Below, in pieces: positions 15,048-54,153 of a stretch of 64,000 bases of DNA; the first letter of the stretch is position 1, and each line of letters starts with the position of its first letter. The notes under the pieces are model-generated. The model searched no databases, had not been told where the DNA came from, and saw only the letters and a list, made by a program, of their open reading frames with translations. This DNA is from Promethearchaeia archaeon (GTDB taxonomy: Archaea > Asgardarchaeota > Lokiarchaeia > Sigyniarchaeales > SOKP01). The translations under genes and the position numbers were made by a program. Location of the stretch: assembly GCA_029856045.1 (NCBI GenBank), contig JAHQWG010000035.1:64001-128000 (forward strand), given 5' to 3'.

Positions 15048-16304
15048 TTATATAGGAGGGCCTTTTTCCGGATGCCTTTTATTTAATTTTAAAATTTGAA
15101 AATCGCTCCTATTTATTATATTTGTATAGTTCTCTAAAAGATTAAGTGGATAAGTATTTATGGTAAATTTGAGTGGATCTGAATGCAAATTATGAGGAAC
15201 TATATCTCGAAAATCTTCCAGACTTACATTAAAATGATGTTCCTTTTCATTTTTTAGGTCAATAATTACAATTTCACTTTCATCTGATTCTTCAATTTCT
15301 TTCCCAACTGAGATATCTTGAACAATATCAGACTTAATTATTAGCGCATCAAACACAACACCTTCAATTACTTCTTTTATCAATTTTGATGAGTTTACTA
15401 AACTTTTGAATCCTGAAATTCTCTTTTTACCGAAAATATGATTTTTAACCTGATAATTAATTGTGCTCATTTTAATTCCAATCTTATCACAAATGCTTGA
15501 GATCGAAACGGAATTAATATTTTTAGCAGTTATTGTTAAGGTGGTCACCACACCTGCGATTACATCATCTTTTGTATTCTTGATAAATGGCCAAAATTTC
15601 AGCAGTATAATATTTGCAATTTTAATGAAATCATTGTTAAAATTAAAGGATAAACAAATTTCATTTATTTTTTTAAGGATCAATTGTTTTCTATCTCTCC
15701 TAGCGTAAGCTGGATAATAGCGAGATGCTTCCATTAAAATCTCTTTAAAATCGCTTTTACTTACGTTTAAAATGTTTATAAAATGTGGAATTTCGAAATT
15801 AATTGCTTTTACTTTTGAAACCATAAAGAGAATAACGGGTACTAACTTCTCTGGTGCCCTTCCTTTAGTTCCTTTTTTTAAATTTTTCCAAACATTCTTA
15901 AAAACGAAGATACAATCAGATTTTAACGAGATAGGAAGATGTAGAGCAGTTATAATACGATTAAATTCGGAATCAGCTATTTGAAGTACAAAATTTCTAT
16001 ATCCATTAGAAATCCTTTGCATCTTTGACATTCGCTCTAACTCATATGAGCGTGAATTTGCTCTCCTTTCTAAATTAGTCCCTAATTTTGTTGTTTTCTT
16101 AAGTTCATTAGAATAAACTTGAATTGAATCTTGATTATAGGGAGAGTTATATCGAAAGATCGGTAAATCTAATGTTAATCCACAATTTCTACAAACATAA
16201 ACACCACCAGACTCGATAATGTCTTCTGATCTACAGCCGTCACAGAAAAATCCAATCGTTTTTTCCGGTAAATCAAATATTTGAAGGTTTTTATTAAACA
16301 TCAT
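15048..16304 (-). CDS. Divergent TFB/TFIIB paralog (Zn ribbon plus two cyclin folds, C-terminal tail)
   Basis: CDGC..VYVCRNCG ribbon; EFNRIITALHLP; KGRAPEKL; terminal HTH SISSICDKIGIKMSTI. Confidence 0.75.
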   Translation of the reverse strand: MMFNKNLQIFDLPEKTIGFFCDGCRSEDIIESGGVYVCRNCGLTLDLPIFRYNSPYNQDSIQVYSNELKKTTKLGTNLERRANSRSYELERMSKMQRISNGYRNFVLQIADSEFNRIITALHLPISLKSDCIFVFKNVWKNLKKGTKGRAPEKLVPVILFMVSKVKAINFEIPHFINILNVSKSDFKEILMEASRYYPAYARRDRKQLILKKINEICLSFNFNNDFIKIANIILLKFWPFIKNTKDDVIAGVVTTLTITAKNINSVSISSICDKIGIKMSTINYQVKNHIFGKKRISGFKSLVNSSKLIKEVIEGVVFDALIIKSDIVQDISVGKEIEESDESEIVIIDLKNEKEHHFNVSLEDFRDIVPHNLHSDPLKFTINTYPLNLLENYTNIINRSDFQILKLNKRHPEKGPPI

Positions 16305-16687
16305 TTTTTATAGATCCGAAATTTAATTATCACTTGAATATGATAGGGTAGGAGTTTTAATTTTAAAGATTACGATTACCCTCTAGAAATGGCTTCTATC
16401 ATATTTTAAATGGAATAAAATTGAATAAAATTGAATTCTTAAGGAATAATCTAAGATCTAGTATTCTTCATCAAAAATCTAAGACCCTTTAAATTATTTA
16501 AAAAACGTCTCTGATAAAAATATAAAAAGGTACTGCAATTATATTTAAAAATTAATAAGTTTATGGTGTCAAAGGTTCTTAAATTATTAAAAAATTATTT
16601 ATGTATAAAAAACTAAAAATTAATTTTTATCTAAAAATATTAGCCTAAATCTATTAGGGTGCGTTATTTGATATGTTTCATAAAAAT

Positions 16688-17431
16688 TTACTCTAAATTT
16701 AATAATTTATTTAATTTTGGGATAATTTCATCAGAAAAATCATAATATTGAAGAAAAAGATCCAAAAATTCATCGTAATCATTTTCATTTAAATTAAAAT
16801 TTTGAAATATCAGGTTGCGCGAAATATCAGAAAGAGGAGTATTACTTATCCAATTTAAAAACTTACTAAAAAAATCGCCATTACCAGTTAAAATATAACC
16901 TAAATTAATCCAAACTTTATCAGGAACAAGTCCCTCATTATTAAATAATGTTTTTTCGATAATCCTCAAACTTTCTTTATTATTTTTTATTTTCTGTAAT
17001 GCTTTAAAATTGGTCCCATTACTTATTTTAAAGCTTTCAATGAATAGCTTTTGAGCTTCTATTTTATTCCCTGCAATTTCTTCAATCAATCCCAAGTAAT
17101 AATAATTTACATCAAAAAATTGATTGATTTTTATAGAAGCAATGAACATTTTTTTTGCAGTTTTATATTTCTTTTGCTTGAATTTTATTTTTCCTAAAAG
17201 ATATCTTGATTCGAAATCTTCAGGATCGTTCAGTATTGCTTTATTGAGAAAATCTTCACTTTCTACAAATTTTCTTAACTTATAAAGAACCTTTGCCATA
17301 AAACCATAAGCAGTACTATAATTAATATTAATTTCAAATATGTTTTTCAGAAGATTGTATGCTTCTTCAATATTATTCTCGCTATATTGAAATTCCGCTT
17401 CCAACATTAGGTTTTCTAATTTAGAATTCAT
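16688..17431 (-). CDS. TPR-repeat protein
   Basis: AY..MAKVL, RYLLGKI, YYYLGLI TPR patterns. Confidence 0.8.
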   Translation of the reverse strand: MNSKLENLMLEAEFQYSENNIEEAYNLLKNIFEININYSTAYGFMAKVLYKLRKFVESEDFLNKAILNDPEDFESRYLLGKIKFKQKKYKTAKKMFIASIKINQFFDVNYYYLGLIEEIAGNKIEAQKLFIESFKISNGTNFKALQKIKNNKESLRIIEKTLFNNEGLVPDKVWINLGYILTGNGDFFSKFLNWISNTPLSDISRNLIFQNFNLNENDYDEFLDLFLQYYDFSDEIIPKLNKLLNLE

Positions 17432-17574
17432 CTATAAATGAACTCAAGAATTTTTTTATCCAATATGGTTAAATAAATCTTTATTATGATTTTATAATAA
17501 TTTATCTGTATTTTTTGTTAATACTAATTTTTTTTTTATTGAATTCAAAAAATTTGATGATTTTTCTTTTTATA

Positions 17575-20106
17575 TCATGCTAATGTATTAAACCCCTCAA
17601 ATTCTTTTATTTTGCTTTTATTTTTTCTTGATTTTGTTGATATTATTATTGATTTACAGATTGTTAAGTTTAATCCTGTTTTATGTCGCAATATATGAGG
17701 ATTTTCAGAAAGAACTTTTGATGCAATATGATATCCAGCATTATACAAAATCCGACCCCTGACTCTTCCCACATTCCTCAACCTTAAAACTAAATCAAAT
17801 AATTCTTCACGAATTCCGTGTGTAATTCGGATTATTAATGTTTCACATAAATTTGCAATTTTATCATCATCTAAATAAGAAGCAATTATTCCAATAAATT
17901 TGATAATTCTGATAACGTTTTCTTTAATTGAAAATAAATCCCCGGCATAAATTTTGAATTCATCCAATATATTTTGTAAAGGTTCTTCATCTGCCCACCA
18001 AATGAGTGGTTTCATCATCTTCATATTTCTGATTCTTGATTCAGATTTTAATACAATAAAAGCACACTTAATTAAACTTTTATAATCATTAACTTCACCG
18101 TTTTCTAACATTTTTCTAATTTTTACACCGCTTGACGGATACAGATATAATTTAACTATTAATTTGCCAAAATTGGAGCAAATTAATCCATTCCTTTCCT
18201 TTAATAAAAGCCCTTTCTCAATTAAATAATCTAAGATATATTCTCCCTTCACACTTTTAGGGATTATATCATTTACGTATTTTATTATTCTTACATCGGT
18301 CTGAGAAACCAAAAATAAAAGAAAACTACTTATGTGATTACAAAAAATGAAGTTACAAGAATTTTGTCCTAGTAAATCTTCTCCAACTCTATTATTAAAA
18401 TTACAACTACATGTAATTCCGCTATCCATATCAAATCTTACATGAAAGACTCCAAAATCTGTTTTAACTATCCCTTCAATTGAATCCTTTTTTATATTTG
18501 TAATTTTTGTTTGAAAGTTAGACCTTTTAATTTTTTCTAAAACTTCTGGATTTGAATGCAATTTCAATATATTCTCTGTTGTTATTTCTTTAATTCGTAA
18601 GAATTGATCTATGGGAATTATTTTATCCTTTATGCAATTCCAATAATATGTTTTTTCAAAAAAATTTTTCAATTTATTAAATGAAATGGATTCTTGCTCA
18701 AAAACCCTTAATAATACTTGTTCTCTTAAAGTTTCAGTTGAATTTATAGCAGATTGAATAGAATTATATATAGGAACCAATCGTTTTCCATCCTCTCCTA
18801 TTTGAAAATATTGATCCTCCACCCATATTTTTTCTTCAATGTTTTTAACAAGTATTATTCCAAAACCTTTAAGATCTAAACCTGGTCTACCAGCTCTGCC
18901 CAGCATTTGGAAAATTTGATTTCTTGAAAAAGGTTCAAAATAAGTAAATCCATTGCCAAAATCTTCATAAAATTTAGAAAAATCGGTAATGTTATCAACA
19001 CTTGTTTGATATCTTTTAAAATCCTTAATAATTACCATTCGAGCTGGCGTGTTTATTCCTGCGGAGAGAGTTGTTGTGGAACAAATAACTTTTAAAATTC
19101 TCTTATTAAAATATTCTTCAATTATTTGTCGTTCTTTTGAGAGAAGTCCTGCATGATGGAAAACCACACCTCCTTTTATGCAGCTCTTTAATTCAGTAAT
19201 TCCACCCTTAATGTTTTCTAATTGCTGTGATAATTTTTTACAGATTGATAGTTCTTGAGGATCCAACTTTTTCTTTATAAAATTTTTAAGGTATAGAGCA
19301 AGCTTCTGCGCTTCCTTCCTTTTATTCACAAATATTATAATTTGGCCTTTTTTCTTTAAAATTTCATTTACATAATGTTTGATGGTTGAATCTTTATTTT
19401 GAGACACTTTGATATCATATTTTAATGGTACTGGCCTTTCATTAGAAATTATTAAGATAAATTCTTGCCCAAGTGACGATAACCAGTTGCAAAAAAATTC
19501 AGGATTTGCTACTGTGGCAGATAAAGCAATAATTTGAGGATTAATCAAAAATTCATTCAATCTAACAATTAATGATTCTAACCGCGGACCTCTGTCTCTC
19601 TCTCCAACACAATGTATTTCATCTATAATAATTGTCGTAATTTCATTAATCCATTTTTCTTCTTTATAATTTCTTAATATTGAGTCCATCTTCTCATATG
19701 TAGTTATAATTATATTAGCTTTTTGAAGTTCCTTATCGTCAATGACAATATCCCCGATTGATAATTCTATTTTTATTCCGTATTTACTGTAATTTTTCGA
19801 GAAATATTGATACTTCTCGGAAGCCAAAGCTTTAAATGGTACTAAGTAAATTGCCTTTCCATCGTTTTTGAAAATATTATTAACAATACACAGTTCACCA
19901 ATCAATGTTTTTCCGCTACCGGAGGGTGCAACAATTAAAAAAGATTTATTAAAATAGAGTCCCTTAATAATTGCTTCTTTTTGGATATCTCGTAAATTAT
20001 AAATGTTATTTTTTAATAAGATTCTAATTATTCTCTCATCGTCTACATATTGATTAAATTCTGAGATTATTTCCTCCGGTGATTTTTCAAAATTAGTCGT
20101 TGTCAT
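17575..20106 (-). CDS. Ski2-like (Hel308/Hjm-family) DNA helicase with inserted SWIM Zn finger and C-terminal HhH
   Basis: APSGSGKT, DEIH, SAT, QMLGRAGRPG; CSC-x17-CNH insert; LRNVGRVRGRILY. Confidence 0.9.
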   Translation of the reverse strand: MTTTNFEKSPEEIISEFNQYVDDERIIRILLKNNIYNLRDIQKEAIIKGLYFNKSFLIVAPSGSGKTLIGELCIVNNIFKNDGKAIYLVPFKALASEKYQYFSKNYSKYGIKIELSIGDIVIDDKELQKANIIITTYEKMDSILRNYKEEKWINEITTIIIDEIHCVGERDRGPRLESLIVRLNEFLINPQIIALSATVANPEFFCNWLSSLGQEFILIISNERPVPLKYDIKVSQNKDSTIKHYVNEILKKKGQIIIFVNKRKEAQKLALYLKNFIKKKLDPQELSICKKLSQQLENIKGGITELKSCIKGGVVFHHAGLLSKERQIIEEYFNKRILKVICSTTTLSAGINTPARMVIIKDFKRYQTSVDNITDFSKFYEDFGNGFTYFEPFSRNQIFQMLGRAGRPGLDLKGFGIILVKNIEEKIWVEDQYFQIGEDGKRLVPIYNSIQSAINSTETLREQVLLRVFEQESISFNKLKNFFEKTYYWNCIKDKIIPIDQFLRIKEITTENILKLHSNPEVLEKIKRSNFQTKITNIKKDSIEGIVKTDFGVFHVRFDMDSGITCSCNFNNRVGEDLLGQNSCNFIFCNHISSFLLFLVSQTDVRIIKYVNDIIPKSVKGEYILDYLIEKGLLLKERNGLICSNFGKLIVKLYLYPSSGVKIRKMLENGEVNDYKSLIKCAFIVLKSESRIRNMKMMKPLIWWADEEPLQNILDEFKIYAGDLFSIKENVIRIIKFIGIIASYLDDDKIANLCETLIIRITHGIREELFDLVLRLRNVGRVRGRILYNAGYHIASKVLSENPHILRHKTGLNLTICKSIIISTKSRKNKSKIKEFEGFNTLA

Positions 20107-20291: not shown

Positions 20292-20717
20292 ATGGATAAA
20301 AGATTATTTGATCCAAACGACATAAAAATTTCACGCTCTGGAATATGGAAAATAGAAAGAGACCATGGAATTTTATATTTTGGGGTTAATTTAGACAATA
20401 AATCAGATTTTAATATTTATAATCTCAAATTTTTCTTACACAAAATTCCCATAAATATGAAATTAGAGCCAAAACAAATTCATAGAATTCCAAATTTGAA
20501 TCCAAAAACGAATATCTCAGTTTATTTCAGGTTAATTCCCGAAAAAGATTATATTTTTGATACTGTAGAAGGATTTATTTCATATTATGATTTACGAGAA
20601 AAAATATATATTAGAGATATAGAGCCGTATAAGATCGAATTTCAAAGAGAATTATATACACCGAATAAAATTTTCATAAGGAATTTGAATCAAAAAGTTA
20701 AGTCTTCTTCTATTTAA
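20292..20717 (+). CDS. Hypothetical Ig-like beta-sandwich protein
   Basis: V.LDNKSDF.I.NL and IPNLNP....VYF pattern resembles adaptin-ear/CARDB-type sandwiches. Confidence 0.55.
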   Translation: MDKRLFDPNDIKISRSGIWKIERDHGILYFGVNLDNKSDFNIYNLKFFLHKIPINMKLEPKQIHRIPNLNPKTNISVYFRLIPEKDYIFDTVEGFISYYDLREKIYIRDIEPYKIEFQRELYTPNKIFIRNLNQKVKSSSI

Positions 20718-20766: not shown

Positions 20767-20793
20767 TACTTATTTGAACATCTATTGGATATT

Positions 20794-23175
20794 ATGGATA
20801 ATTACTTATATCAAAGTGATACGACATTAGATACCCCAGATAGAACAGATTATAAATATCATTATAATGAAGCAGAGAAATTGGAGAAAGAAGGAACTCT
20901 AGAAAGCCTTGAGTCCGCTATTGTTCATATTGAGATGGCAATCAATAATTTAAACATGAAAAAAGAAATATTGCCAGAGAAATCATTAGATTCAGAGTTA
21001 AAAAAATTCGCTGAACATCAATTAACGATTAAAACAAATTATCATGAGAAACGAATTAATAAATTGTTAGAAGAGGTAAAAAATGAGGAGAATTCAAAAA
21101 ACTATAAAAAATCGGTAAATATTTATAAGAAAATAAGAGATTCAATGAATTTTTTATATAAATTAGGAGATAAAGGCATAAACATTAATGAAATAAATAA
21201 AGTAAAAGAGAAAATTAGTAAATTAACTAAAAAGATATTAAATGAGAATTTATCAATCTCTTTGAACAGAAAATCAAGTAAAACTGAGCAAAAGCCATAT
21301 TCAGATGAATTTAAAGAAATTAATGCAGAATTTGAGGAAATAAATTTTGATACAAATGATCAAATTCCTTTACAGAATCATGATACTGAAGGAGAAATAA
21401 AAATACCGATTGAGGTTGAATCCAAGGTAATGGATCAAGATGAATTAGCTCAATCAGAAATGATATTATTAGAGGATAATGAAGTGGAGGAGGATAACAT
21501 AGATTTACTTGATAGACCTAACAAAATTAATATCTTAGATCAAATTAAAGTGATTTCAAATATCCCTGAAACTAAAGAATATTGCATGGAAAACGAAATT
21601 TTGGATAAAAAATCAGTCAAATTGTTATTAGCTCAGTTAAGAAAAGCATTAATTGCTAATAATTACCAAATTTTTCCTAATGATGACATTGATTTTCAAG
21701 AATTATATAATAAGATTGATTTTCTTGCAATAAAGATCTTCCATATTAATGAATTTTTAGATATATGCCATATTTTACCACTAAAACTTGCTAAACTATA
21801 CGGTTTATTACTTGTCTCAGAAAAAAAGATCGATTATAATAGCAATAATACAAATTTATCTCAGATTGAGCGTAAAAATCTAATACAGCCACTAAAAGAA
21901 GACATAAATGATGTCGTTCGTACTTTATCAAATGAACTTGGAAATGAAGGCCCGATCGCTAAAAATTTCATTTCGTATATTAATGATGATATATCCTTAG
22001 AAAAAAGCAGAATAGCAAGTAAAGGCTATTTTTATTGTAGAGGCCGAATGCAATACAATTTTATAGTTCAGCCCATTATCATTTCCCAAAATAAAATTGG
22101 ATTTTTAGAGAGGAATATACCATATGCATTCCAACAATCTTCTGATTTATATGTTGTTAATATTAACGATTTAAATGATTTATTAAGCTACTTGGAACAG
22201 AAAAAAAGTTCAATTGAAAAAATTTGTATCAAAAAGCAGCCACTTAATTTATTTATAGATAATAAAATAAAATTAAGCAATGCTTTAAGGTTAATAAGCA
22301 TCTTATTAGGAGTATTTGGGGTTTCTTACTTAATTTCATTGTTTTTAAATGATAAAATTTTTGTCAGTGTGTTTCAAGTATTACAAATTCCTTTTATAAT
22401 AGGGATAATACTTCTATTAGGTTTCTTTATATACATATATAAAAAAAACCAAGATGAGATCATTCAAAAATATAATAGACCATTCGGCTTCGACCATCCG
22501 GACTTTTCTGGACAAAATTTATCTATTGCTTTGAATCAAATTAATCCTCCTGAAAGAGAGCAATTCCTATATGAGATATATAACAAGCGTCCAATTCCTA
22601 TTGAGTTATTGCAAAAGATCCAAAATCCTCACATTTTTTCAGAATTTGTTGAATTATTTGAATCAAACATAGTAAATATCACATTAAATAATGAGAATTT
22701 AACTAGATTAAAACAGTCTTTTAAATATTTTAAACAAAAACATAATTTCTACAAAGCATATTGTATTCTTCGGGCAATTCTTGTGTTGAAATTACGAGAT
22801 TTTATAAGACATCGCTTGAATAAATCAGCCGATGATATCCATAATATCTCTTCCCTGCTAGATATAATATGCGCTGAATGTAATATCCTATTTAACAATA
22901 AGTCGGTAGAAGCGATAAAGAAAATAGAGGGAATTAGAGAACTGAAGGGACTTATAAATCAGAATTTTTTTACTCAAATTGTAAATATAGTATATGATAT
23001 TATCGAAATAATTCAGAAGAATACCAAATTGACTGAAGATCTTAAAGAATTTAATAATTTTCATGAAGAAAATGTTCAGAAATTTGAAGAGAATGCTGTA
23101 TTTGAAAAAAGCATTGGCTATACGGGAGGAGACCCTCCAGAAAATATATTTAAAGATTTCTTAAAGGATGATTAA
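20794..23175 (+). CDS. Large two-TM protein: helical N-terminus, acidic linker, degenerate PD-(D/E)xK-like domain, helical C-terminus
   Basis: LIANNYQIF...KIDFLAIK...ILPLKL; two hydrophobic helices near residues 500-550. Confidence 0.6.
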   Translation: MDNYLYQSDTTLDTPDRTDYKYHYNEAEKLEKEGTLESLESAIVHIEMAINNLNMKKEILPEKSLDSELKKFAEHQLTIKTNYHEKRINKLLEEVKNEENSKNYKKSVNIYKKIRDSMNFLYKLGDKGININEINKVKEKISKLTKKILNENLSISLNRKSSKTEQKPYSDEFKEINAEFEEINFDTNDQIPLQNHDTEGEIKIPIEVESKVMDQDELAQSEMILLEDNEVEEDNIDLLDRPNKINILDQIKVISNIPETKEYCMENEILDKKSVKLLLAQLRKALIANNYQIFPNDDIDFQELYNKIDFLAIKIFHINEFLDICHILPLKLAKLYGLLLVSEKKIDYNSNNTNLSQIERKNLIQPLKEDINDVVRTLSNELGNEGPIAKNFISYINDDISLEKSRIASKGYFYCRGRMQYNFIVQPIIISQNKIGFLERNIPYAFQQSSDLYVVNINDLNDLLSYLEQKKSSIEKICIKKQPLNLFIDNKIKLSNALRLISILLGVFGVSYLISLFLNDKIFVSVFQVLQIPFIIGIILLLGFFIYIYKKNQDEIIQKYNRPFGFDHPDFSGQNLSIALNQINPPEREQFLYEIYNKRPIPIELLQKIQNPHIFSEFVELFESNIVNITLNNENLTRLKQSFKYFKQKHNFYKAYCILRAILVLKLRDFIRHRLNKSADDIHNISSLLDIICAECNILFNNKSVEAIKKIEGIRELKGLINQNFFTQIVNIVYDIIEIIQKNTKLTEDLKEFNNFHEENVQKFEENAVFEKSIGYTGGDPPENIFKDFLKDD

Positions 23176-41684: not shown

Positions 41685-42161
41685 CTAACCATAATATATA
41701 AGCAAATTATTAAATAATGAAATTCCTGTTAAGATAATTCCAATCAAGATAAAAATGACATTCCATTTAAAGTCGTCATAAGGTATATTGGATATTTTTT
41801 TATTATTAAATAGTAAAGGGATGCCAGTCGGATTTAATGCATCCAATAATATATGAATTTCAAAAATAAACCACATTGAAATGGCTAAAAATATTGAAAA
41901 AGGAAGATTAATTAAAATTCCAAATAATCCTAAGATTATTGCCAATCCGATAAGTAATGGAGAGAGTGGAGAGTGTGTCCAAAAATATCTTTTATGTTTA
42001 ATAAACAATTTATAATCAAGGATATCATTTATTATTCCCGCTTCAAAATAAATTGGCAACATAAAAAAATAAATAACTCCAATATTTTGAAAAAAATTAA
42101 AAATTGTTAATAAAAAAGAGCCGATTCCAAGACTCATAAATCTATGAGAGTTTTTTTTCAT
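41685..42161 (-). CDS. YdjM/DUF457-like metal-dependent membrane hydrolase
   Basis: DILD, HKRYFWTHS, HILLDALNPTGIPL. Confidence 0.75.
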   Translation of the reverse strand: MKKNSHRFMSLGIGSFLLTIFNFFQNIGVIYFFMLPIYFEAGIINDILDYKLFIKHKRYFWTHSPLSPLLIGLAIILGLFGILINLPFSIFLAISMWFIFEIHILLDALNPTGIPLLFNNKKISNIPYDDFKWNVIFILIGIILTGISLFNNLLIYYG

Positions 42162-46252: not shown

Positions 46253-46951
46253 TTATTTTTTAATTATTTTATCTATTAAGTCCTTTATAACATCAGATGA
46301 TTTTCTCAGACTTATAAATCCAACTAAATGAAGACTTTTAAAAATTTTATTTTTTACTTGATAATTTACTGTGCTCATTTTAATTCCTATTTTATTACAT
46401 ACGTGTACAAAAGGGATGGAATTTATTCCCAATGCAATCATTGTTAAAATAAAAATTACTCCCACTATTACATCATCTTTTGTATTTTTTATATAAGGCC
46501 AAAATTTTTTAAAAATCTCTTGAGATTTATTAGTAAAACCTTTGTCAAATCTAAAAATTTCTTTTATTTTGTTTATTTTTTTGATAATAACGGTCTTTCT
46601 ATCTCTTTTAAAATAAGTCGGATAAAAAATCGCTGCTTGCTTTAAAATTTCAGTAAATTCTTTTTTATTTGAATTGATCTTTTCTATAAAATCAGCAATT
46701 CTAATATCAAATCCTTTTGCTTTAAAAACCATATAAATTATTACTGGGGCTAACTTTTTTGGTGACCTTGATTTAGTTCCTTTTCTCATCTGTTTCCATA
46801 TCTGTAAAAAAATCTGAAAACATTCTTCATATAAGTTTGGATATTTTGCCAAATCCAAAATAATTATCAATTTGTTTAAAATTAATTCAAAACTATCAAT
46901 TACAGTTTTCTCATAGTAAGAATATTGAATAAATTGTTCAGATTTGCTCAT
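46253..46951 (-). CDS. TFB-like cyclin-fold protein lacking the Zn ribbon (paralog of 15048-16304)
   Basis: Shared blocks KGTK.R.P.KL.PVI, KFWP.IKNTKDDVI.GV, KIGIKMST.NYQVKN.IF. Confidence 0.75.
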   Translation of the reverse strand: MSKSEQFIQYSYYEKTVIDSFELILNKLIIILDLAKYPNLYEECFQIFLQIWKQMRKGTKSRSPKKLAPVIIYMVFKAKGFDIRIADFIEKINSNKKEFTEILKQAAIFYPTYFKRDRKTVIIKKINKIKEIFRFDKGFTNKSQEIFKKFWPYIKNTKDDVIVGVIFILTMIALGINSIPFVHVCNKIGIKMSTVNYQVKNKIFKSLHLVGFISLRKSSDVIKDLIDKIIKK

Positions 46952-46998: not shown

Positions 46999-48162
46999 TC
47001 ATAAGTTAAGTAATATTGGACTTTTAGGAATTTTAACTTCCGACATTATTTCTTTTTTTAAATTGTTGTCATAACGGAACTCATTACATTTATATTCCTC
47101 TAAATTTAGAGAAAATGGATAATAAAACTTACATATTGAATGATAAATAAATTGGAACCAGAGATATGGAATTTTTTTCAACATGTTATTATCATCTTGT
47201 TCAATATTATAGAAAATAAATCTCAAATCTTCAAATCCATTTTGTGTTAATGAATTTAAAGGAGGAAATGACTCATATTTCAAAAGATCTAATGATAAAT
47301 TAGAATTAGGATTATTTAAAATGAGAATTAACTTATTTTGGAAATTTTTTTCTATGTTTTTTCTTAAAATGAATTTTATAATAAAAATTGAAGAAATTAT
47401 TTTTCTTAAGAAGATAGGAAGCGTAATAGGAAATTTAATTAAAAAAATTCCCTCCTGTATTTTATCAAGAGTCCAAGACTCAATATTAATTTCATTTAAA
47501 TCTTGCATAATCATGTGAAAATTTATATGATACAACAATTGGTATAAAATCGAGATGAATTTATCATTTATTTTTGAGCCAAAATGTTTCAATTGGTTGA
47601 TATTTTTATTACCAGATATGAAGCTCTCAAATGGATCGTTATTTAATAATAGAGTTTCAATCTCTATTGCTTCTATTTCGGTTAATTTAAATATAGATTT
47701 TAAAATTTGCGTAATTGAATTATACCAAATAAAAGGATTAATCTTTGAAGGACGAACAAATAAGTTTTGATACATATCTGAATTAAAATAAATAGTATTT
47801 ACTTGAGATTTAAATATATTATGGCGAAAAAGTTCATTATTAAAATCAAAAATCACAACCGAATGATTTTTCATATTAATAATACCCAATTCTTTATCTT
47901 CCTGAAATAATTGAACATATTGAGAAATTAAAAACTCTACCAACTTAGTTTGATCTTGAAAGTGATGAATTTTGCTTGAAATAAAGATGTTTTCTTTTTT
48001 AAATACTCTATGAATAAGAGAGTAAAACACAAATGGGTTAAGATAATAGATTTTTTTTTTTGATGATTTCTGAAAAAATCTTTGCCTATTTTTGAAGTTT
48101 CTTATTAATTCCCAATCAGTTTTTTGTAATCTATTGGATATTTTACTGAAATTTTTAATCAT
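46999..48162 (-). CDS. Hypothetical protein, possibly a highly degenerate HerA/VirB4-like fold
   Basis: SVVIFDFNNE resembles PSIIFDFNGK of the 1285-aa protein; start moved to ATG 24 nt below TATA 48187-48194. Confidence 0.45.
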   Translation of the reverse strand: MIKNFSKISNRLQKTDWELIRNFKNRQRFFQKSSKKKIYYLNPFVFYSLIHRVFKKENIFISSKIHHFQDQTKLVEFLISQYVQLFQEDKELGIINMKNHSVVIFDFNNELFRHNIFKSQVNTIYFNSDMYQNLFVRPSKINPFIWYNSITQILKSIFKLTEIEAIEIETLLLNNDPFESFISGNKNINQLKHFGSKINDKFISILYQLLYHINFHMIMQDLNEINIESWTLDKIQEGIFLIKFPITLPIFLRKIISSIFIIKFILRKNIEKNFQNKLILILNNPNSNLSLDLLKYESFPPLNSLTQNGFEDLRFIFYNIEQDDNNMLKKIPYLWFQFIYHSICKFYYPFSLNLEEYKCNEFRYDNNLKKEIMSEVKIPKSPILLNL

Positions 48163-48284
48163 ATCAAGAAAGTTATAAGACATAAGCTTTTAAAGAAAAA
48201 ACATCATTTCATCTTTTTTTCTTTATATATTTTGATTATTATTTTCTCATAAAAGGTAATTGAACGATCAAATTTTGATGAGTA

Positions 48285-48617
48285 ATGAGTAAAACAAGTG
48301 TGTTAAAAATATTTGGAGTATTTTCAATAGGTATAATATCATTAGTGGTATTTTTCCAAGATGAAATTATGGTCCATCTTATTGATCCAATCCAAGAAAT
48401 TTTTAGATATATATTTAATTTAATTCCAGTGATATTATTTTCCGCAGCCGGAATATTTTTAATAAGCGGATTTATAAGTAAAAGGAATAGAGTAAGTTGT
48501 CTCATATTCAGTGCATTATGTTTCTTATTTGGGTTCTGGTTATCTAATCCAAGTGGTTTAGAAGATATTGCAAATATGTTTGCTGGAAGACCAGTAACTC
48601 CAAAAGGTTGGCATTAA
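48285..48617 (+). CDS. Small membrane protein (leader helix plus TM hairpin), VirB2/CedA1 pilin-like
   Basis: Three hydrophobic helices with basic loop ISKRNR. Confidence 0.5.
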   Translation: MSKTSVLKIFGVFSIGIISLVVFFQDEIMVHLIDPIQEIFRYIFNLIPVILFSAAGIFLISGFISKRNRVSCLIFSALCFLFGFWLSNPSGLEDIANMFAGRPVTPKGWH

Positions 48618-48642: not shown

Positions 48643-48900
48643 ATGTATAATTTATTTCAATTTCCAGATTTAATTGATATATTTACAAATCAATTACCTG
48701 TAAACTTGGCAGAGTTTTGGCAGTTTTTAACAGCAATTCTTTCATTATTGGGATTAACAGGACTTGTTATTTCAATTGTGTGCCTTTTACTCTCAATTAA
48801 AGTAAAATTTAAAGGATTATTGAGTTTTATGATATTTTCATTGATTTTATGTTTAATTTGCGGCTTCGATACCGGATTGATCTATTTTAAGATTATTTAA
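48643..48900 (+). CDS. Small TM-hairpin protein, pilin/CedA-like
   Basis: Two hydrophobic helices with basic loop IKVKFK; GGGGG SD. Confidence 0.5.
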   Translation: MYNLFQFPDLIDIFTNQLPVNLAEFWQFLTAILSLLGLTGLVISIVCLLLSIKVKFKGLLSFMIFSLILCLICGFDTGLIYFKII

Positions 48901-49025
48901 ATTAAAAATTTCTTGCTTTAAATTAATTTAAGAGGAAAATATTAACTATTTTCAATTATTCTAATTTTTTCTTTTAAATATCTTCATTGTATAATTATTT
49001 CAAAATTTAAGAAATTTTGATAATA

Positions 49026-50204
49026 ATGACAGAATTAAAATTAGTGAAAGGCATTCAAGCGAGACATATTAAGATTTTTACAGAGAACGGTATTACTACA
49101 GCAGAAGCTCTTGCTATGTCTGGTTTTAAGAGTATTACTGCAATGGAAGGTATTGGAGAAGCAACTTCTAAAAAACTTATTTGGAATGCCAGAAGTGCTT
49201 TGGGAATGAGTAGTTTTAAAACAATATCAGAGTTCCAAGAAAATCATGAATATATTAGCACAGGTTCTTTAAATTTTAATGCAATTTTAGGAGGTGGTAT
49301 AGAAACAGGTTTTATAACAGAAGTTTTTGGTCCATTTAAATCCGGAAAGACCAATTTAGCGCACACTTTGTGTGTTACTACACAATTACCAAAAGGAAAA
49401 GGTGGATTAAGTGGTGCTGTGATTTATATTGATACCGAAAATACATTTTCGAAAGAAAAAATCAAACGAATTACCAAGAGATTTGGTCTTAAACCCGAAA
49501 ATGTACTCCCGCACATTTTTCATGCGAGAATTTATAGTTCCGATCATCAAGCTCAAATGATTTTGGAAGCGGAGAAACTCGTAAAAGAAAAAAATGTTAG
49601 AATAATAATTTTAGATAGTTTAATGGCGCTTCTTCGAGCAGAATACATCGGAATTGGAATGCTTCCACAACGACAAGCTACATTAAATCAAATGATTCAT
49701 GCTCTTTCCAGAATTGCAGAGAGTTATAATATAGCGATCCTTGTAACAAATCAGGTTGCCCAACAAATAAAGGGAATGTTCAGCGGTATTGATGCAATTG
49801 GAGGGAATATCGTCGCTCATGGTTGCCAGATTCGGGTGATGTTTAAGACAAAAGGGTTCGCCGCGAATAGTTCTCTTGAAAGAAAGGCAATTATTGTTGA
49901 TGCACCTGATTTACCTCCTGAGGAATGCCAGTTTTATATAACTCCAGCAGGGATCTCAGATACAGAGAAAATAGATTTTTCAAGTATGGAAGAAAATATA
50001 GAACCCAAATTTATTATGGCTAATGATGAATTTACCTTAGAAAAAATTAGAGGAATAGGAAAAAACATAATGGAGAAATTGGAACAAATAGGAATTACTA
50101 CTACTGAGCAATTGAAAGATACAAATCCCGAAGATCTTGCTAAAGATTTGCCAGGTATTTCAAGTAAAAAAGTAAAAGAATGGATTGAACAAATTCCTGC
50201 TTAG
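49026..50204 (+). CDS. radA: RadA/Rad51-family recombinase paralog with extra C-terminal HhH domain
   Basis: N-terminal HhH, GPFKSGKT, YIDTENTF, IILDS, VTNQV, IGGNIVAH; tail LEKIRGIGK. Confidence 0.85.
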   Translation: MTELKLVKGIQARHIKIFTENGITTAEALAMSGFKSITAMEGIGEATSKKLIWNARSALGMSSFKTISEFQENHEYISTGSLNFNAILGGGIETGFITEVFGPFKSGKTNLAHTLCVTTQLPKGKGGLSGAVIYIDTENTFSKEKIKRITKRFGLKPENVLPHIFHARIYSSDHQAQMILEAEKLVKEKNVRIIILDSLMALLRAEYIGIGMLPQRQATLNQMIHALSRIAESYNIAILVTNQVAQQIKGMFSGIDAIGGNIVAHGCQIRVMFKTKGFAANSSLERKAIIVDAPDLPPEECQFYITPAGISDTEKIDFSSMEENIEPKFIMANDEFTLEKIRGIGKNIMEKLEQIGITTTEQLKDTNPEDLAKDLPGISSKKVKEWIEQIPA

Positions 50205-50332: not shown

Positions 50333-51391
50333 TTATTTTATGGGTTTTTGCCCATATGTTTCATCTAATCCTTTAATTTTTATTTTCCTGGCTTGCATTG
50401 ATAAAATTATTACAATTACAACCACAATACTTACGAATATCATTAAAAAATAACCTTCTAGAGGGATTTCGAAATAAAATGTTGTGTTAAAATAGCCAGT
50501 ATTATTAAAAGTGTCATTTGCTGGGTTATTTATATCATAGGCTTGAGTTTCATTAATTCCTTGTCCAATTTTTCTAGATTCATATATTAAATATGCAAAA
50601 TTGTATCTGGGATATGCTGAAGCCAGACCAAATTTAAATAAATAAGACCCACGAAGTGCTGTTCCGAATAAAATGTCAGCAAATTCTAAATTTTCGGGAA
50701 GAGAAGTTGTATTATCAAATATAAGATAAGGATCTGCCTCAGGATCAATAATAGTTAAATTTACCGTTTGAGTTGCTGGTAATGTATAGGCAATCGGAGA
50801 AACTCTTACGACAATTATTCGGTAAAATGTATCATTTTCTAAATTAGCCAAAAATTGTAATTCATTATAAACTCCCGAACTGAAACAATGGACGTCATAA
50901 GATATTGTATCATTAAAAACACTTTCTAATAATTTGTCATATATGCACATATCCCCTTCCTTTACTGCAATATGTAAATTAAGATTATATTCAGTCTCAA
51001 CTGTTATTTTCAGTTCATAAGTTCCATTTTTTGCTGTTCCAAATGGCACAGTAAATTTTTTCGTATTTTCAAAATAAAAAGACATTGTCGCATTATAGAT
51101 TTCAAACTCAATACCGTCGGGATCTATCATATTTAGAGATATATTGCACTCATTAGGCGTTACTAATTCACAATTGATTATATAATAATAGTATTCTCTA
51201 AATTCTAAATCAAATATTCTTGTTGTTTTTGGAAAATTAAATTTATATACTTTATCAATGTAAGTCTTTGGCCACTCATTTGATTCGTTAGCAATCACAT
51301 TATAAATATTAAGATTGATTGAATTCATTAAAATTAATGATGCTAGAGAAAAAATCAAATATATAGATTTAATTTTTCTTTTAATACCCAT
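50333..51391 (-). CDS. Single-pass surface protein with two beta-sandwich repeats
   Basis: Signal helix; repeats MIDPDG..PFGTAKNGTY / IIDPEA..LFGTALRGSY; C-terminal TM; many sequons. Confidence 0.7.
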   Translation of the reverse strand: MGIKRKIKSIYLIFSLASLILMNSINLNIYNVIANESNEWPKTYIDKVYKFNFPKTTRIFDLEFREYYYYIINCELVTPNECNISLNMIDPDGIEFEIYNATMSFYFENTKKFTVPFGTAKNGTYELKITVETEYNLNLHIAVKEGDMCIYDKLLESVFNDTISYDVHCFSSGVYNELQFLANLENDTFYRIIVVRVSPIAYTLPATQTVNLTIIDPEADPYLIFDNTTSLPENLEFADILFGTALRGSYLFKFGLASAYPRYNFAYLIYESRKIGQGINETQAYDINNPANDTFNNTGYFNTTFYFEIPLEGYFLMIFVSIVVVIVIILSMQARKIKIKGLDETYGQKPIK

Positions 51392-51707
51392 TCACCTTTA
51401 ATTCTTTAAACTCTTTAATTAGATTATTTACTTCCGAACATTGGGTATAATCAATACAAGTAAAACATGGTCTATCAGTCCAAAAATAATTGGTTTTATT
51501 TTTCTTAAATATAAGCAAGATTGGCACTTTTGTATTTGGACATAATAAAGTAGTATTTTCAATCTTTCCTGCTTTGGGCACAGCATACGAAAAATTACAT
51601 GTCTCAGATTCACATTTTATAAATCTCTTATAAGATTTTGTCTTATAAAGAATTAATTCATCAAATCCGCATTTAGGGCATTCTCCAATAGAAATAATCT
51701 TTCTCAT
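51381..51707 (-). CDS. Topoisomerase I-type C4 Zn-ribbon protein
   Basis: GECPKCG..L......RFIKCESETCNFS, CP..CFTC. Confidence 0.75.
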   Translation of the reverse strand: MRKIISIGECPKCGFDELILYKTKSYKRFIKCESETCNFSYAVPKAGKIENTTLLCPNTKVPILLIFKKNKTNYFWTDRPCFTCIDYTQCSEVNNLIKEFKELKVNGY

Positions 51708-51766: not shown

Positions 51767-52204
51767 TTAGTGATAATCATTTATTGTTGAAGAATTAGGC
51801 AAGGAGGTTGTAGCAAATTCAATTTTTTCCTGTAGAATATGTTCGAACAAACGTTTTAAAAACTCTGACTGTGGATATTTCAATAATCTATTATATTTTC
51901 CAATATTTATCCAAAAAGCTTGATCTGTTTCATGTTTTTTTATCGAAATTTTTGTAGTTTCATTATTAAATATGTGAATCGTACTCCACTCTGTTTTTTT
52001 CTGAGAGAGAACAAATAACATCTCGATAATTTCACATATATTAAATTTCACAATTTTACCTTCATTGAGTGATGGTTTTTCCCAAATTCCATTCTCCTTT
52101 TTTCTTATACAATGAAAATATAGAAATGGCTCATTTTTTTTATTACTTTTAACAATAATTCCTACTTTCTGACCAAAAAAACTCTGATTGTGCTTATCTG
52201 TCAT
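51767..52204 (-). CDS. Hypothetical protein, possible Whirly/PC4-like ssDNA-binding fold
   Basis: Two beta-beta-beta-beta-alpha-like units, aromatic/basic (WEKPS..EGKIVKF..CEI). Confidence 0.4.
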   Translation of the reverse strand: MTDKHNQSFFGQKVGIIVKSNKKNEPFLYFHCIRKKENGIWEKPSLNEGKIVKFNICEIIEMLFVLSQKKTEWSTIHIFNNETTKISIKKHETDQAFWINIGKYNRLLKYPQSEFLKRLFEHILQEKIEFATTSLPNSSTINDYH

Positions 52205-52225: not shown

Positions 52226-52993
52226 TTAAATTATAAATTCAAATCCATTATTTGACAACTTGTATTTAGAAATAAATTCAATTTTATGATATTTTAAGTT
52301 AAGAGCTTTTTCTCGTTTCTCATTTACTTCCAATTTTATCATTATTGAGTCAATCCTATCAAATAATTTATGTAAAAATTTAACGTTTTTATTCAAATTT
52401 GGTTTATATGAAACTTCATGAATGAAAATTAGATTTACTCTATTAAGTGAAGCAAACATTTGTAGCGGATATATTTGCTCAGTAAAGAATGTATTTATTA
52501 TCTTGATTTTGTTGTCAATCTCATTAAATTCCATAAGTTTAAGGCGAAAATTGCTTGAAATTGAATCAAATATTATTAATTTTGTATTTATGGGAATAAA
52601 ATTTTCTATTGAGCTTAGCTCATTTATTAAATTCTGTTGTTTAAAATATGATGAAATATTGGTTAAAAAAATATTATTCTTAATATATTCTAACTGTTCT
52701 GGAGCATCCTTAAAGTTATGTTCTAATCTTTTATATGAAAATGGCGAACCAGCATTTATCCATAAAGCAGAATATAAATTTTCCTTATCTGAAATCAGAT
52801 GTCCGACTAAAAATTGTACAAACGTTGATTTACCTGAACCTGATTCACCAGATATTTGAATTATTCTAGAATTATTTCTTAAGAGATTATAGATAAGATT
52901 AAAAAATTCATCACACAACTCATTTTTATTTGAAATAAAATCATAGAAATTTGTTTTATTATTTTTTATCAGTTTTTTTGCCTCAATTATCAA
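52226..52993 (-). CDS. RadB/Rad51-paralog-like ATPase
   Basis: QISGESGSGKST, LIIFDSISSNFR; no N-terminal HhH. Confidence 0.8.
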   Translation of the reverse strand: MIIEAKKLIKNNKTNFYDFISNKNELCDEFFNLIYNLLRNNSRIIQISGESGSGKSTFVQFLVGHLISDKENLYSALWINAGSPFSYKRLEHNFKDAPEQLEYIKNNIFLTNISSYFKQQNLINELSSIENFIPINTKLIIFDSISSNFRLKLMEFNEIDNKIKIINTFFTEQIYPLQMFASLNRVNLIFIHEVSYKPNLNKNVKFLHKLFDRIDSIMIKLEVNEKREKALNLKYHKIEFISKYKLSNNGFEFII

Positions 52994-53330
52994 ATAATTT
53001 TAAAATTTGATTTTTTTCTTCTTTCAAATCTTCATCTCTTTCTTTTAAAGAATTCATCACATCTTGTTTTAAAATAAGTTTTACAGGTTGTGATTGATTC
53101 TGATTCAATAGAGACATTAAAAGTACCAATTTCACTAAATCATTGTTTGTCGATTCCCCAATTTCTCCTTTCCCAAAAATTCCCCCACCAGAATTCTTAT
53201 ATTTTCGATATTTTGGATATAAATAAATTATTAAAATAATTCCAATAATTATTGAGGCTGTTAAGGGATCTTTCTGGAAAAAGATAAAACCCATCAATAT
53301 CATTACCCCATATATTATTAATTTAAACAT
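52983..53330 (-). CDS. Small two-TM membrane protein
   Basis: N-terminal hairpin, GAGG SD, overlaps the RadB-like gene. Confidence 0.65.
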   Translation of the reverse strand: MFKLIIYGVMILMGFIFFQKDPLTASIIIGIILIIYLYPKYRKYKNSGGGIFGKGEIGESTNNDLVKLVLLMSLLNQNQSQPVKLILKQDVMNSLKERDEDLKEEKNQILKLFDN

Positions 53331-53359
53331 TTTTTCTTACCTCATTTTTCTTCTCTATT

Positions 53360-54112
53360 CTACCATTGAGTGCGTGGTGAGAATTCATTTCCTCTTTTTT
53401 TTTTGCGATATTTAACTTCTATTTTATGTTTAGTATATTTGATTTTTCTCCGGGAGATTATTATGTTGTGATGGATTAAAATTAATCCGAGTCCGAGATA
53501 TCTCATCATGTAATAAAAGAGCATTGATAGAAAAAACAATGTTATTAATGAATCAAATATAATTAGTTCAAAAAAATTCATTAAATAATAGGAGATTGAC
53601 GAAGCAATAAAAATGACAATAATTTGAATTACTGTATATCTCTTGTTAGTGCTTTGAAATGATTTAGCAATCATTCGAATATCGGTATTGCTGGGACTCA
53701 TCTGTGTAAGAATTGAAATTGCGATATAAATTAAGATTAGGGCAATCATATAATTAACTACTGGACTGAATATATAGAAAAGGATAAAGCCAATAATATA
53801 GGTTCCAATAAATAAAGGTGCAAACGAGACCAAAAGACTCTGAAAAAAATTCGAATTTGCAGTGGCAATTTTTCCAGACAGACCACCTTTTTTATTTCTT
53901 ATTGGTATAATATTTGTTTCAGTTACTTTAGTATGAGTTAAAATACACATAATATAATGACTTACCTCATGAACGATAATCCCAATAAAGAAGCATGTAT
54001 GAAATAAACGATAAAATGTTATACTTTTACTACCTAAATGGGTTGTAACGAATGATAACAATGTGGAGATTACAAGAACTCCAATAAATATTATTAAACA
54101 GGTTACAATCAT
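53360..54112 (-). CDS. Membrane metallopeptidase, M50B/DUF3267-like
   Basis: GIIVHEVSH (HExxH), SFAP, PSNTD; multi-TM. Confidence 0.75.
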   Translation of the reverse strand: MIVTCLIIFIGVLVISTLLSFVTTHLGSKSITFYRLFHTCFFIGIIVHEVSHYIMCILTHTKVTETNIIPIRNKKGGLSGKIATANSNFFQSLLVSFAPLFIGTYIIGFILFYIFSPVVNYMIALILIYIAISILTQMSPSNTDIRMIAKSFQSTNKRYTVIQIIVIFIASSISYYLMNFFELIIFDSLITLFFLSMLFYYMMRYLGLGLILIHHNIIISRRKIKYTKHKIEVKYRKKKRGNEFSPRTQW

Positions 54113-54136
54113 GAATTGAGATTTTTATAAAATGAT

Positions 54137-54153
54137 TATTTAAAAATAAAAAA
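54137..54153 (-). promoter_or_regulatory. T-run/TATA promoter motif
   Basis: T6-A-TTTTTAAATA, 24 nt before ATG 54112. Confidence 0.55.

Follow-up and report, generated by a model that had tools for sequence, protein, structure and literature searches.

A probable chromosomal accessory island and regulon in an Asgard archaeal order, with its own TFB paralogs, promoter class and recombination genes

This study was concerned with a stretch of 64,000 nucleotides from a Promethearchaeia archaeon (contig JAHQWG010000035.1, positions 64,001 to 128,000; G000:C35:64001-128000), referred to here as the window, and with a gene island that it contains. All positions are in the numbering of the window unless a contig is named. 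Positions 8087-54112 (~46 kb) represent one genus's rearranged copy of an island that a single Asgard order retains in 11 or more of its genera. The island is very probably a chromosomal accessory unit and a regulon, with its own paralogs of the transcription factor TFB and its own class of promoter. The analysis also supports the conclusion that the island joins a private set of recombination genes to membrane and surface proteins. An initial annotation of this DNA had proposed a DNA-exchange and recombination locus starting at 15048. That start was too late: the island begins at 8087, and the genes at 8087-8641 and 8666-12409 are conserved members. The assembly (G000) comprises 55 contigs and 3.34 Mb with a G+C content of about 27%. 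Open reading frames were listed and scanned with Pfam and NCBIfam models over the window, and the window proteins were compared with the whole assembly by tblastn. Flanking regions were compared in 11 other genomes and 17 public contigs, on which open reading frames were called and 734 proteins were clustered.

About 20 families are co-retained in 28 loci from at least 11 genera and two families, with order and orientation varying between loci (tblastn and clustering), and the genes that flank these loci show no conservation across the loci compared. The usual layout is a series of co-oriented blocks, given here in order of transcription: F28, F53, F54 and F37, which form a membrane operon; the helicase Hel308-l; TFB-l, W8666, W8087, the helicase Hef-l and Zn178; f250, f115, RadB-l, X13 and the island RadA paralog; Zn108 and f352; sm85; X9; and X19, the island FEN1 paralog, X12, X11, f202, a GTPase and f389. 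X11, which occurs in other genera, is an RPA-like protein with an oligonucleotide-binding (OB) fold. In a closed genome of the second family (G038) the same families lie inside about 60 kb of the chromosome, and in yet another genus (L067) the membrane operon directly adjoins Hel308-l and Hef-l. The public contigs that bear the island RadA belong to metagenome-assembled genomes (MAGs) labelled Promethearchaeota, Hermodarchaeota, Lokiarchaeota or Thorarchaeota. The copy in the window's genus is broken into blocks. Within the genus, Ka/Ks of the island genes is 0.10-0.52, the level of the flanking genes. Two MAGs of this genus (G001:C256 and G002:C226) each carry a second island-type RadA that is 82% identical to that of the window, beside a copy that is 94-95% identical, which suggests that the bins mix strains or that the island has been duplicated. 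The initial annotation had expected the genes to co-occur on a chromosome, and both expectations were borne out: the neighbourhood is rearranged and conserved, its genes are mostly present or absent together, and in the closed genome the island is chromosomal.

The distribution of the island is patchy. The island RadA was detected only in one order, where two families have it: 45 of 68 genomes in the first and 3 of 7 in the second (48 of 75). The surface protein f352 was found in 46 of 68 and 2 of 7 genomes of the same families and in none of 225 other Asgard genomes sampled. No clear orthologue of the island RadA was found in those 225 genomes; three genomes of family f19 gave borderline matches of about 1e-73 with 43-44% identity, which is the level of canonical RadA. 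Within the main family of 68 genomes, 42 contain both the island RadA and f352, seven contain one alone and 19 contain neither; these counts are given as a pattern and not as a statistic because the genomes are mutually related. Three genomes that are 97-99% complete (G008, G009 and G020) are without the island RadA, Hel308-l, TFB-l, the island FEN1 and f352. Another genome, G007, likewise lacks Hel308-l along with the island and has kept TFB-l alone. The genera g4 and g6 include both island-bearing and island-free members. By this pattern of presence and absence, the island is accessory and has mostly been gained or lost as a unit.

The island genes share a rare promoter. It consists of a T-tract at the position of the B recognition element (BRE), one base, TTTAAATA and often ATTTT about 7 nt further on. 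The strict form, TTTTT-N-TTTAAATA (14 nt), occurs 38 times in 3.34 Mb, and nine of these sites fall in 46.2 kb of the window where 0.53 would be expected (binomial P = 2e-9). On the forward strand the strict sites start at 20753, 31232, 32088, 37336, 42254 and 45009; on the reverse strand the sites have their 5' ends at 51745, 46986 and 44825. A looser form accounts for 26 window sites out of 230 in the genome, with copies upstream of W8666, Hel308-l, the island FEN1, F39, the island RadA, f250 and the gene at 46999-48183. In total, more than 20 transcription units of the window have the island promoter. Upstream regions in this genome are typically A-rich, in keeping with a purine-rich BRE. 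A position-weight ranking is circular for the window sites and was used solely for candidates outside the window, which are few. A scan for sigma-70 promoters gave matches at the level of shuffled sequence and has no relevance to an archaeon.

The same motif was found in other genera. On the island contigs of five other genomes (G014, G017, G006, G005 and G021) it is enriched about 14-27-fold (P 5e-5 to 8e-8). In other genera it stands 22 nt before orthologues of X13, 25 nt before sm85, about 50 nt before Zn108, f202, X12 and W8666, and about 60 nt before the island RadA. In addition, G017 and G014 have off-island sites that lie next to members of families of the window's island: the F24-F57-F38 trio (with motif sites at G017:C62), F55 (in G017), f145, X13, f389, F37 and the block from the island FEN1 to f389. 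Because off-island sites stand beside the same families, the motif defines a regulon of those families wherever they are located. Co-regulation of the island genes, which the initial annotation had proposed, is supported by the conservation of this rare promoter across genera and by the TFB paralog with a changed BRE-reading helix that lies alongside.

Several genes outside the window of the same genome also have the motif. Contig C43 (20.8 kb) encodes a 773-aa protein with an acidic N-terminus and three PD-(D/E)XK (PDDEXK_5) domains (C43:9708-12026, L052), with the motif upstream, and a longer paralog, about 290 aa, of the window protein w32326 (C43:1766-2659, L010), whose motif site is among the top-scoring ones. 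As both lie downstream of motif sites, they may be an off-island part of the regulon. A DprA/Smf-like gene (G000:C38:13537-14511, L057; DNA_processg_A, 2e-36) was considered as a member on the strength of a strict motif 98 nt upstream and was rejected: five other genomes with the island yielded no homologue, and it is not a conserved member. The other strict off-island sites in this genome (beside MFS, SIR2, Fer4/TrmB and PepX_C genes) look like background.

Two divergent TFB paralogs are encoded in the island, as had been noted earlier. TFB-l1 (15048..16304, reverse strand) has a Zn ribbon, two cyclin-like repeats, an altered BRE-recognition helix and a C-terminal extension. The helix reads MSTINYQVK where canonical TFB has TEVTxRxRYK, and MST(I/V)QxQVK replaces the canonical sequence in the C-terminal helix-turn-helix throughout the TFB-l family. 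The family tail comprises 100-130 residues and ends in KGPP or KDPP (KGPP in TFB-l1), and the Zn-ribbon cysteines C21, C24, C38 and C41 show almost no variation among 17 sequences. TFB-l2 (46253..46951, reverse strand), a duplicated and shortened copy, is without the Zn ribbon and the C-terminal tail, retains the same altered helix, is 48% identical to TFB-l1 and has the island promoter. TFB-l1 has no island motif upstream, either in the window or in other genera. Both window TFBs fall below the Pfam TFIIB cut-off, which four canonical TFBs elsewhere in the genome pass, and TFB-l scores 21.5 bits on NF001658 against a cut-off of 384. The family can be aligned with the four canonical TFBs over both cyclin repeats, and its profile matches the first TFIIB cyclin repeat in the PDB (E 1e-5). 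X12 was considered as a short TFB; TFIIB-like clusters of the Atlas scored 0.88-0.89, which served as a lead only, and hhalign against the TFB-l profile gave 5%, so this candidate was rejected.

The recombination and repair genes of the island were scored with NCBIfam equivalog models. The island RadA (49017..50204, forward strand) scores 318 bits on NF003301 (cut-off 259) and 279 bits on TIGR02236, below the cut-off of 361; the canonical RadA proteins elsewhere score 461 bits (C17) and 486 bits (C15) on NF003301. Its Walker A, Walker B and L1/L2 regions are intact, it has a 5-residue insertion, and its C-terminus carries an extra acidic linker and a helix-hairpin-helix (HhH) domain, which is atypical for RadA. 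It forms a distinct orthogroup, with 59-67% identity across genera versus 40-44% to canonical RadA. The two canonical-type genes (C17:3369-4454 and C15:92285-93559) differ in their N-terminal extensions, one of them with an extra HhH. A further, more divergent RadA-like gene lies on C1, and most relatives also have two canonical-level RadA matches. RadB-l (52226..52993, reverse strand), a RecA-fold ATPase, scores 51 bits on TIGR02237, below the cut-off of 172; it keeps GxxGxGKT and Walker B, that is, the P-loop features of the RecA fold only. Both genes agree with the RadA and RadB paralogs of the initial annotation, as do the two helicases and two nucleases that follow.

Hel308-l (17575..20106, reverse strand) is a Ski2-family helicase with the Pfam domains DEAD, Helicase_C and Helicase_dom4_arc (7e-8). 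On the NCBIfam Hel308 models it scores 332-405 bits, mostly over residues 22-496, below cut-offs of 887-1216. It is the sole Hel308-type gene found in the genome by tblastn. The other Ski2-like gene, on C40, has a lower Hel308-model score and a long N-terminal extension. An ASH-Ski2 group has been reported, and most Lokiarchaeota are apparently without Hel308 (PMC10946056); the C40 gene fits this group and the reported scarcity of Hel308 in Lokiarchaeota. Hef-l (32708..34792, forward strand) is a superfamily 2 helicase that scores 584 bits on NF010337 (cut-off 610) over model positions 4-526 of 781. It has no functional-looking nuclease domain, and ERCC4 scores 16 bits, below the cut-off. A canonical full-length Hef of 779 aa is encoded on C27 (853 bits on NF010337). 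The end of Hef-l is overlapped by Zn178 (34789..35325, forward strand), a DUF1922-type Zn ribbon.

The island FEN1 (36195..37247, reverse strand) scores 289 bits on TIGR03674 (cut-off 352), and a canonical FEN1 on C27 scores 425 bits. All catalytic acidic residues are kept, and the protein lies nearer to archaeal FEN1 than to EXO1, GEN1 or XPG. An XPF-type ERCC4 nuclease paralog is encoded at about 39850-40589 on the forward strand, in an open frame that holds the whole ERCC4 domain including ERKxxxD; ahead of 40164 the frame has no ATG, GTG or TTG. A short XPF of 260 aa is encoded on C25, and canonical RPA on C27. To judge by their conserved motifs, the island RadA, island FEN1, RadB-l and XPF frame look active. 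The initial annotation had taken these genes to be a second, divergent repair set. This held for most of them, as the genome has canonical genes outside the island for RadA (two copies), FEN1, Hef, XPF, RPA and TFB (four copies); it did not hold for Hel308, whose island copy is the only one. The Zn-ribbon proteins of that annotation were also recovered, as Zn178 and as Zn108 (51381..51707, reverse strand), a Top1-type ribbon that forms a two-gene operon with f352. No single-stranded DNA-binding protein could be verified in the window, and the RPA-like member of other genera is missing here.

The membrane operon (20785-28650) consists of four overlapping or abutting forward-strand genes whose products have predicted transmembrane (TM) segments. 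The first, F28 (20785..23175), has two to three central TM segments and a strict motif at 20753-20766; its orthologues in three other genera have an N-terminal (HhH)2 domain (HHH_5, 1e-9 to 1e-12). The middle genes are F53 (23168..23917), with about five TM segments, and F54 (23918..24796), with C-terminal TM segments. The last, F37 (24793..28650), encodes a 1285-aa polytopic membrane protein. The order F28-F53-F54-F37 is the same in G018 and L067, and the operon abuts Hel308-l in several genera. The Atlas of proteins yielded nothing usable for F28. F37 matches no Pfam family, and homologues were found only in Asgard MAGs. Residues 540-1150 of F37 were modelled with 27 homologues (predicted local distance difference test, pLDDT, 71.5). 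The top 50 Foldseek matches of the model were almost all HerA (4d2i, E 3e-12), and VIA gave Z scores of 24.5 for DndH-C, 23.8 for VirB4, 23.5 for HerA and 21.9 for TrwB, with about 325 residues aligned. The C-terminal half of F37 thus has a HerA/VirB4/TrwB fold, and the VirB4/HerA-like protein of the initial annotation, including the fold comparison with type IV secretion systems that it had proposed, is confirmed at the level of the fold.

Genes for surface, glycan-modifying and small membrane proteins share the island promoter and neighbourhood. W8666 (8666..12409, reverse strand) has an N-terminal hydrophobic segment, a prenyltransferase-type alpha/alpha toroid (PF00432, 3.9e-21) and a C-terminal TM anchor. 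Its likely start is near 12361, 20 nt past a T-tract/TATA site at about 12383-12397, and 14 of the 29 contigs compared carry a member of its family, which in most cases follows TFB-l. f352 (50333..51391, reverse strand) is a predicted type I membrane glycoprotein with two tandem GOLD/CBM-like beta-sandwiches and many N-x-S/T sequons. Its model (pLDDT 78) shows a signal anchor, two generic sandwiches and a C-terminal TM segment. A double-jelly-roll capsid was considered for f352 and rejected on the sandwich topology and the TM segment, with PRD1 P3 at TM 0.19 among generic jelly rolls. Profile searches of the PDB with f352 and X12 found nothing. The surface-modifying enzymes noted earlier are F57 (42314..43462, forward strand), a PP-loop protein resembling N-acetyl-sugar amidotransferases, and the GNAT-like F24 (43526..44746, reverse strand) and F38 (45076..46239, forward strand), each with a strict motif site. 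Two further membrane proteins, F55 (40647..41516, eight TM segments) and F56 (41685..42161, four to five), were predicted on the reverse strand. The membrane peptidase of the initial annotation corresponds to f250 (53360..54112, reverse strand), a polytopic protein with an invariant HExxH and a weak profile match to RseP-type site-2 proteases around that motif (E 0.009-0.04). It forms an operon (52226-54112) with f115 (52983..53330, reverse strand, two TM segments) and RadB-l, which in other genera runs on into X13 and the island RadA. Two pilin-sized membrane proteins had also been pointed out. Both are real and TM-bearing: F39 (48285..48617, forward strand) has three TM segments, and sm85 (48643..48900, forward strand) is a two-TM hairpin with a basic loop, found in 18 of the 29 contigs compared.

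An MglA-type small GTPase (37966..38613, forward strand) with an invariant TCTGQE at the TxxGQ motif and an NKRD motif is encoded between f202 (37339..37947, forward strand, real start probably near 37402) and f389 (38629..39798, forward strand), to which no function is assigned. An MglAB pair had been claimed here. The GTPase fits its part of the claim, and the partner f202 is weakly Roadblock-like (Roadblock/LC7, E 0.07). Prediction of a complex between the two gave weak support, with a score of 0.54 against 0.30 for the best control, a partner pLDDT of at least 73 and runs that agree in at least 64% of contacts; 58 of 80 solved complexes, as well as 2 of 110 mismatched pairs, pass the mark used for this score, and among passes a score at or below 0.60 was seen for only 7 of the 80 solved complexes and for both passing mismatches. 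An f389 orthologue in G021 (L020:10368-11873) has 502 aa and a C-terminal NYN (Zc3h12a-like) nuclease domain (26 bits, cut-off 23), and this extension hints that f389 may act on nucleic acids.

The remaining genes of the span are less readily placed. W8087 (8087..8641, reverse strand) is a conserved cytoplasmic protein with no Pfam or PHROG match; its family occurs in nine loci and, in other genera, lies between W8666 and Hef-l. A 141-aa protein of unassigned family (20292..20717, forward strand) has a motif-like promoter at about 20245-20267. A 130-aa fragment at 31302-31694 (forward strand), with a strict island-type promoter upstream, contains only the RNR_Alpha domain and is 64% identical to part of a 1256-aa ribonucleotide reductase on C25; it is either a domain recruited alone to the regulon or a gene fragment. 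Island-type promoters also precede an 86-aa open reading frame at 31734-31994 (reverse strand) and w32326 (32326-32700, forward strand), which lies upstream of the Hef-like helicase. f145 (51767..52204, reverse strand) has no assigned function, and its relatives are longer (230-260 aa). The 394-aa protein at 46999..48183 (reverse strand) is genus-specific with one TM segment; it was considered as a second HerA-like gene and rejected, as hhalign against the F37 profile gave a probability of 0.2%. Three regions within the span (13781-14968, 29341-31039 and 35355-35783) show no link to the island. The second of these (forward strand) encodes a four-TM protein and a membrane-anchored BD-FAE/S9-type esterase, a pair that recurs at C27:555118-556834 (49% identity) and on C55; it is probably an unrelated insertion, as it is without the island motif. 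At 35355-35900 (reverse strand) the conserved N-terminal part of a Ras-family GTPase, with the P-loop GEGGVGKT, lies in an open frame without ATG, GTG or TTG, as does the ERCC4 core that makes up this part of the XPF paralog. Both frames open on Ile codons right after a stop, so that either ATA/ATT starts are used or starts are being lost.

The most likely purpose of the island is, tentatively, an inducible handling of DNA at the membrane, either uptake or exchange from cell to cell, followed by recombination with dedicated enzymes. Membrane handling of DNA is suggested by the fold of F37, the (HhH)2 domain of F28 orthologues and the adjacency of their operon to Hel308-l, and a surface side by f352, W8666 and F57. 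The programme would be comparable to competence regulons and to the TFB3/Ups/Ced response of Sulfolobales. Under this reading an outside signal would turn on TFB-l1, whose own promoter is without the motif. TFB-l1, as the master factor, would direct RNA polymerase to the T-tract promoters, so that envelope and recombination modules would be produced together, and TFB-l2, which lacks the Zn ribbon and is itself under the motif, may act in feedback or as a downstream modulator. The membrane complex would comprise the HhH-bearing F28, two polytopic proteins and the pseudo-ATPase F37, and the private set would comprise the island RadA, RadB-l, the island FEN1, XPF, Hef-l and Hel308-l, to which other genera would add the RPA-like OB-fold protein. 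Taken as a whole, the island regulon, the proposed switch and a purpose in DNA exchange make up the best explanation available, which we hold with somewhat less than even confidence. The fullest version, a switchable chromosomal genetic exchange in which a dedicated TFB drives surface recognition and glycan modification, a membrane DNA-handling complex and private, separately evolved paralogs of RadA, RPA, FEN1, XPF, Hef and Hel308, is rather unlikely.

Several points weigh against DNA exchange as the purpose. First, the Walker A motif of F37 has become N-G-x4-R-E, and none of the 27 homologues has the Walker A lysine or the Walker B acids. The domain is thus a predicted pseudo-ATPase, and because these residues are absent F37 cannot act as a conventional DNA pump. 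Secondly, the HhH domain of F28 and the HerA-like domain of F37 are predicted to be cytoplasmic, and the (HhH)2 domain of the window's F28 has degenerated. Third, no extracellular DNA-binding protein, nuclease, type IV pilus ATPase, prepilin peptidase or channel family was recognised in the island, and the sm85 profile found no match to solved pilins among PDB sequences. Fourth, we infer that TFB-l reads the motif only from their co-location and the changed helix. Fifth, the island of the window's own genus looks partly eroded. It is without X9, X11 (the RPA-like protein), X12, X13 and X19; the PIP-like QxTLDxxF tail of the island FEN1, present in other genera, is gone from the window copy; and among sister species f352 is split, f250 is truncated and TFB-l2 is broken. 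Lastly, no RNA run was listed as containing window positions 46200-54200, and the DNA runs that contain them are metagenomes from marine sediment and salt marsh.

Among the alternatives, an inducible intracellular programme for repair or replication restart, responding to DNA damage or stress, survives best, and is itself unlikely. The RadA, RadB, FEN1, XPF, Hef and Hel308 paralogs would then mend the chromosomes of the cell itself, the membrane proteins would tether DNA or sense stress, and no DNA would cross the envelope. All of the identifiable enzymes are of repair or recombination types, the HerA-like domain is catalytically dead and, like the HhH domain, predicted to be cytoplasmic, and the HExxH S2P-like protease and the MglA-type switch would fit signalling. 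In addition, an alternative TFB drives a damage response in Sulfolobales (PMC6101594). Such a programme leaves unexplained why surface glycoproteins, glycan enzymes and small membrane proteins share the same rare promoter and phyletic pattern. Moreover, species of the same genera do without the island, although canonical repair genes lie elsewhere.

The phyletic pattern bears on a programme for the cell cycle, differentiation or chromosome handling (ploidy reduction, segregation or resolution, cell fusion) under a TFB paralog, which is improbable. A core function of this kind should be present throughout, whereas 19 of the 68 family genomes lack the island, several of which are 97-99% complete, and none of the island genes was recognised as a division or segregation gene. 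What speaks for it are the TFB paralogs with their own promoter class, together with a membrane protein of the FtsK/HerA superfamily, a membrane HhH protein and a polarity-type GTPase of the MglA class. A cyclic TFB2 regulon has been reported for Sulfolobus, and a preprint describes cyclic transcription under a TFB paralog (bioRxiv 10.64898/2026.09.06.749720).

A patchy, accessory distribution is what a defence system would show, or a domesticated or resident mobile element with its own replication and recombination module; this reading is more improbable still. The structural neighbours of F37 include Sir2-HerA and DndH, the helicase matches Hachiman HamB at 1e-45, and the off-island motif-bearing gene on C43 has three PD-(D/E)XK domains. 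However, PADLOC gave only generic helicase matches, and the Hel308 models are far stronger (1e-121 versus 1e-45). Eight other island proteins gave no match or a trivial P-loop match on PADLOC, and RadA, RPA and FEN1 paralogs that retain intact active sites are atypical of defence. As for a mobile element, Pfam scans found no integrase, capsid, terminase or relaxase domain and PHROGs gave no match for the ten unknown proteins scanned, in line with the initial annotation. The base composition of the island equals that of its flanks, the window yielded no tRNA, f352 is a membrane glycoprotein and not a double-jelly-roll capsid, and the island is chromosomal in the closed genome. Chance clustering of ordinary housekeeping repair genes is excluded, even though TATA-like strings abound in AT-rich genomes and there are many repair genes: canonical copies lie elsewhere, synteny extends across genera and families with unconserved flanks, the motif enrichment (P = 2e-9) is repeated in five other genomes, and the island genes are lost together.

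The island regulon would matter for several reasons. As an alternative-TFB regulon it would be the first to be described for Asgard archaea, and its rewritten BRE-reading helix and T-rich BRE form a testable pairing that bears on how promoter choice diversified in the TFIIB family. Relatives of the eukaryotic ancestor would have evolved a separately regulated second recombination toolkit tied to envelope proteins, which makes gene exchange and the precursors of sex testable. As 42 genomes have both markers, 19 have neither and the two states are mixed within genera, recombination rates and gene flow can be compared without culture. More than 15 families without annotation also gain a context from the island.

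One of the closest known systems is the TFB3-dependent response to UV and DNA damage of Sulfolobales, with Ups pili and the Ced DNA importer (PMC6101594, PMC6101591, PMC9905601). The island resembles it in having an alternative TFB, envelope genes, a VirB4/HerA-like membrane protein and homologous recombination; like that system, it is chromosomal and no mobile element. There are also differences. TFB3 is a co-activator without most of the TFB core, whereas TFB-l1 keeps the Zn ribbon and both cyclin repeats and has a new helix and a promoter class of its own. The island yielded no type IV pilus genes, and its HerA/VirB4-fold protein has dead Walker motifs; CedB shares the VirB4/HerA fold with F37, but its functional Walker motifs are degenerate in F37. 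The island encodes a second set of RadA, RadB, FEN1, XPF, Hef and Hel308, which the Sulfolobus regulon does not. In a wider comparison, residues of about 590-960 of F37 share the fold of HerA, VirB4 and TrwB (VirD4), and F37 is membrane-anchored like VirB4, VirD4 and CedB. However, the Walker A GK[ST] and the Walker B acids of these proteins are absent in F37, and no NurA, VirB or relaxase partner was found.

Extra RadA paralogs of Asgard archaea, distinct from the main RadA of the same MAGs, were reported by Matsuo et al. 2025 (PMC12722695). Those clades were described without synteny or regulatory analysis, whereas the RadA considered here is placed in an island with its own TFB. Literature searches found no description of the island, in agreement with the initial annotation. 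The streptococcal competence regulon under ComX/sigma-X includes ComEA, SsbB, DprA and RecA. Competence regulons are alike in their dedicated initiation factor and special promoter box, a membrane HhH protein, a paralogous single-stranded DNA-binding protein and recombination mediators. In contrast, the components of the island are of archaeal or eukaryotic type (TFB, RadA, RPA, FEN1), no ComEC-like channel or pseudopilus was recognised, and the HhH domain is predicted to be cytoplasmic. As for DprA, the motif-bearing DprA-like gene of this genome is not conserved in relatives.

Eukaryotic meiosis also relies on a toolkit of paralogs, among them Dmc1, Mer3/HFM1 and MEIOB. The likeness to the island lies in the concept: in each case a second set of proteins, of the Rad51-family, Ski2-like helicase, RPA-like and XPG/XPF-family types, is regulated separately. 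There is no orthology between the two: the island RadA scores no better on Dmc1 and Rad51 models than on the RadA model and is specific to its order, and the island FEN1 is nearest to archaeal FEN1. If the genetic-exchange reading is true, the archaea most closely related to eukaryotes would have in this island a prokaryotic counterpart to a cycle of sex or competence, and its programme would have arisen independently of the meiotic toolkit while following the same logic.

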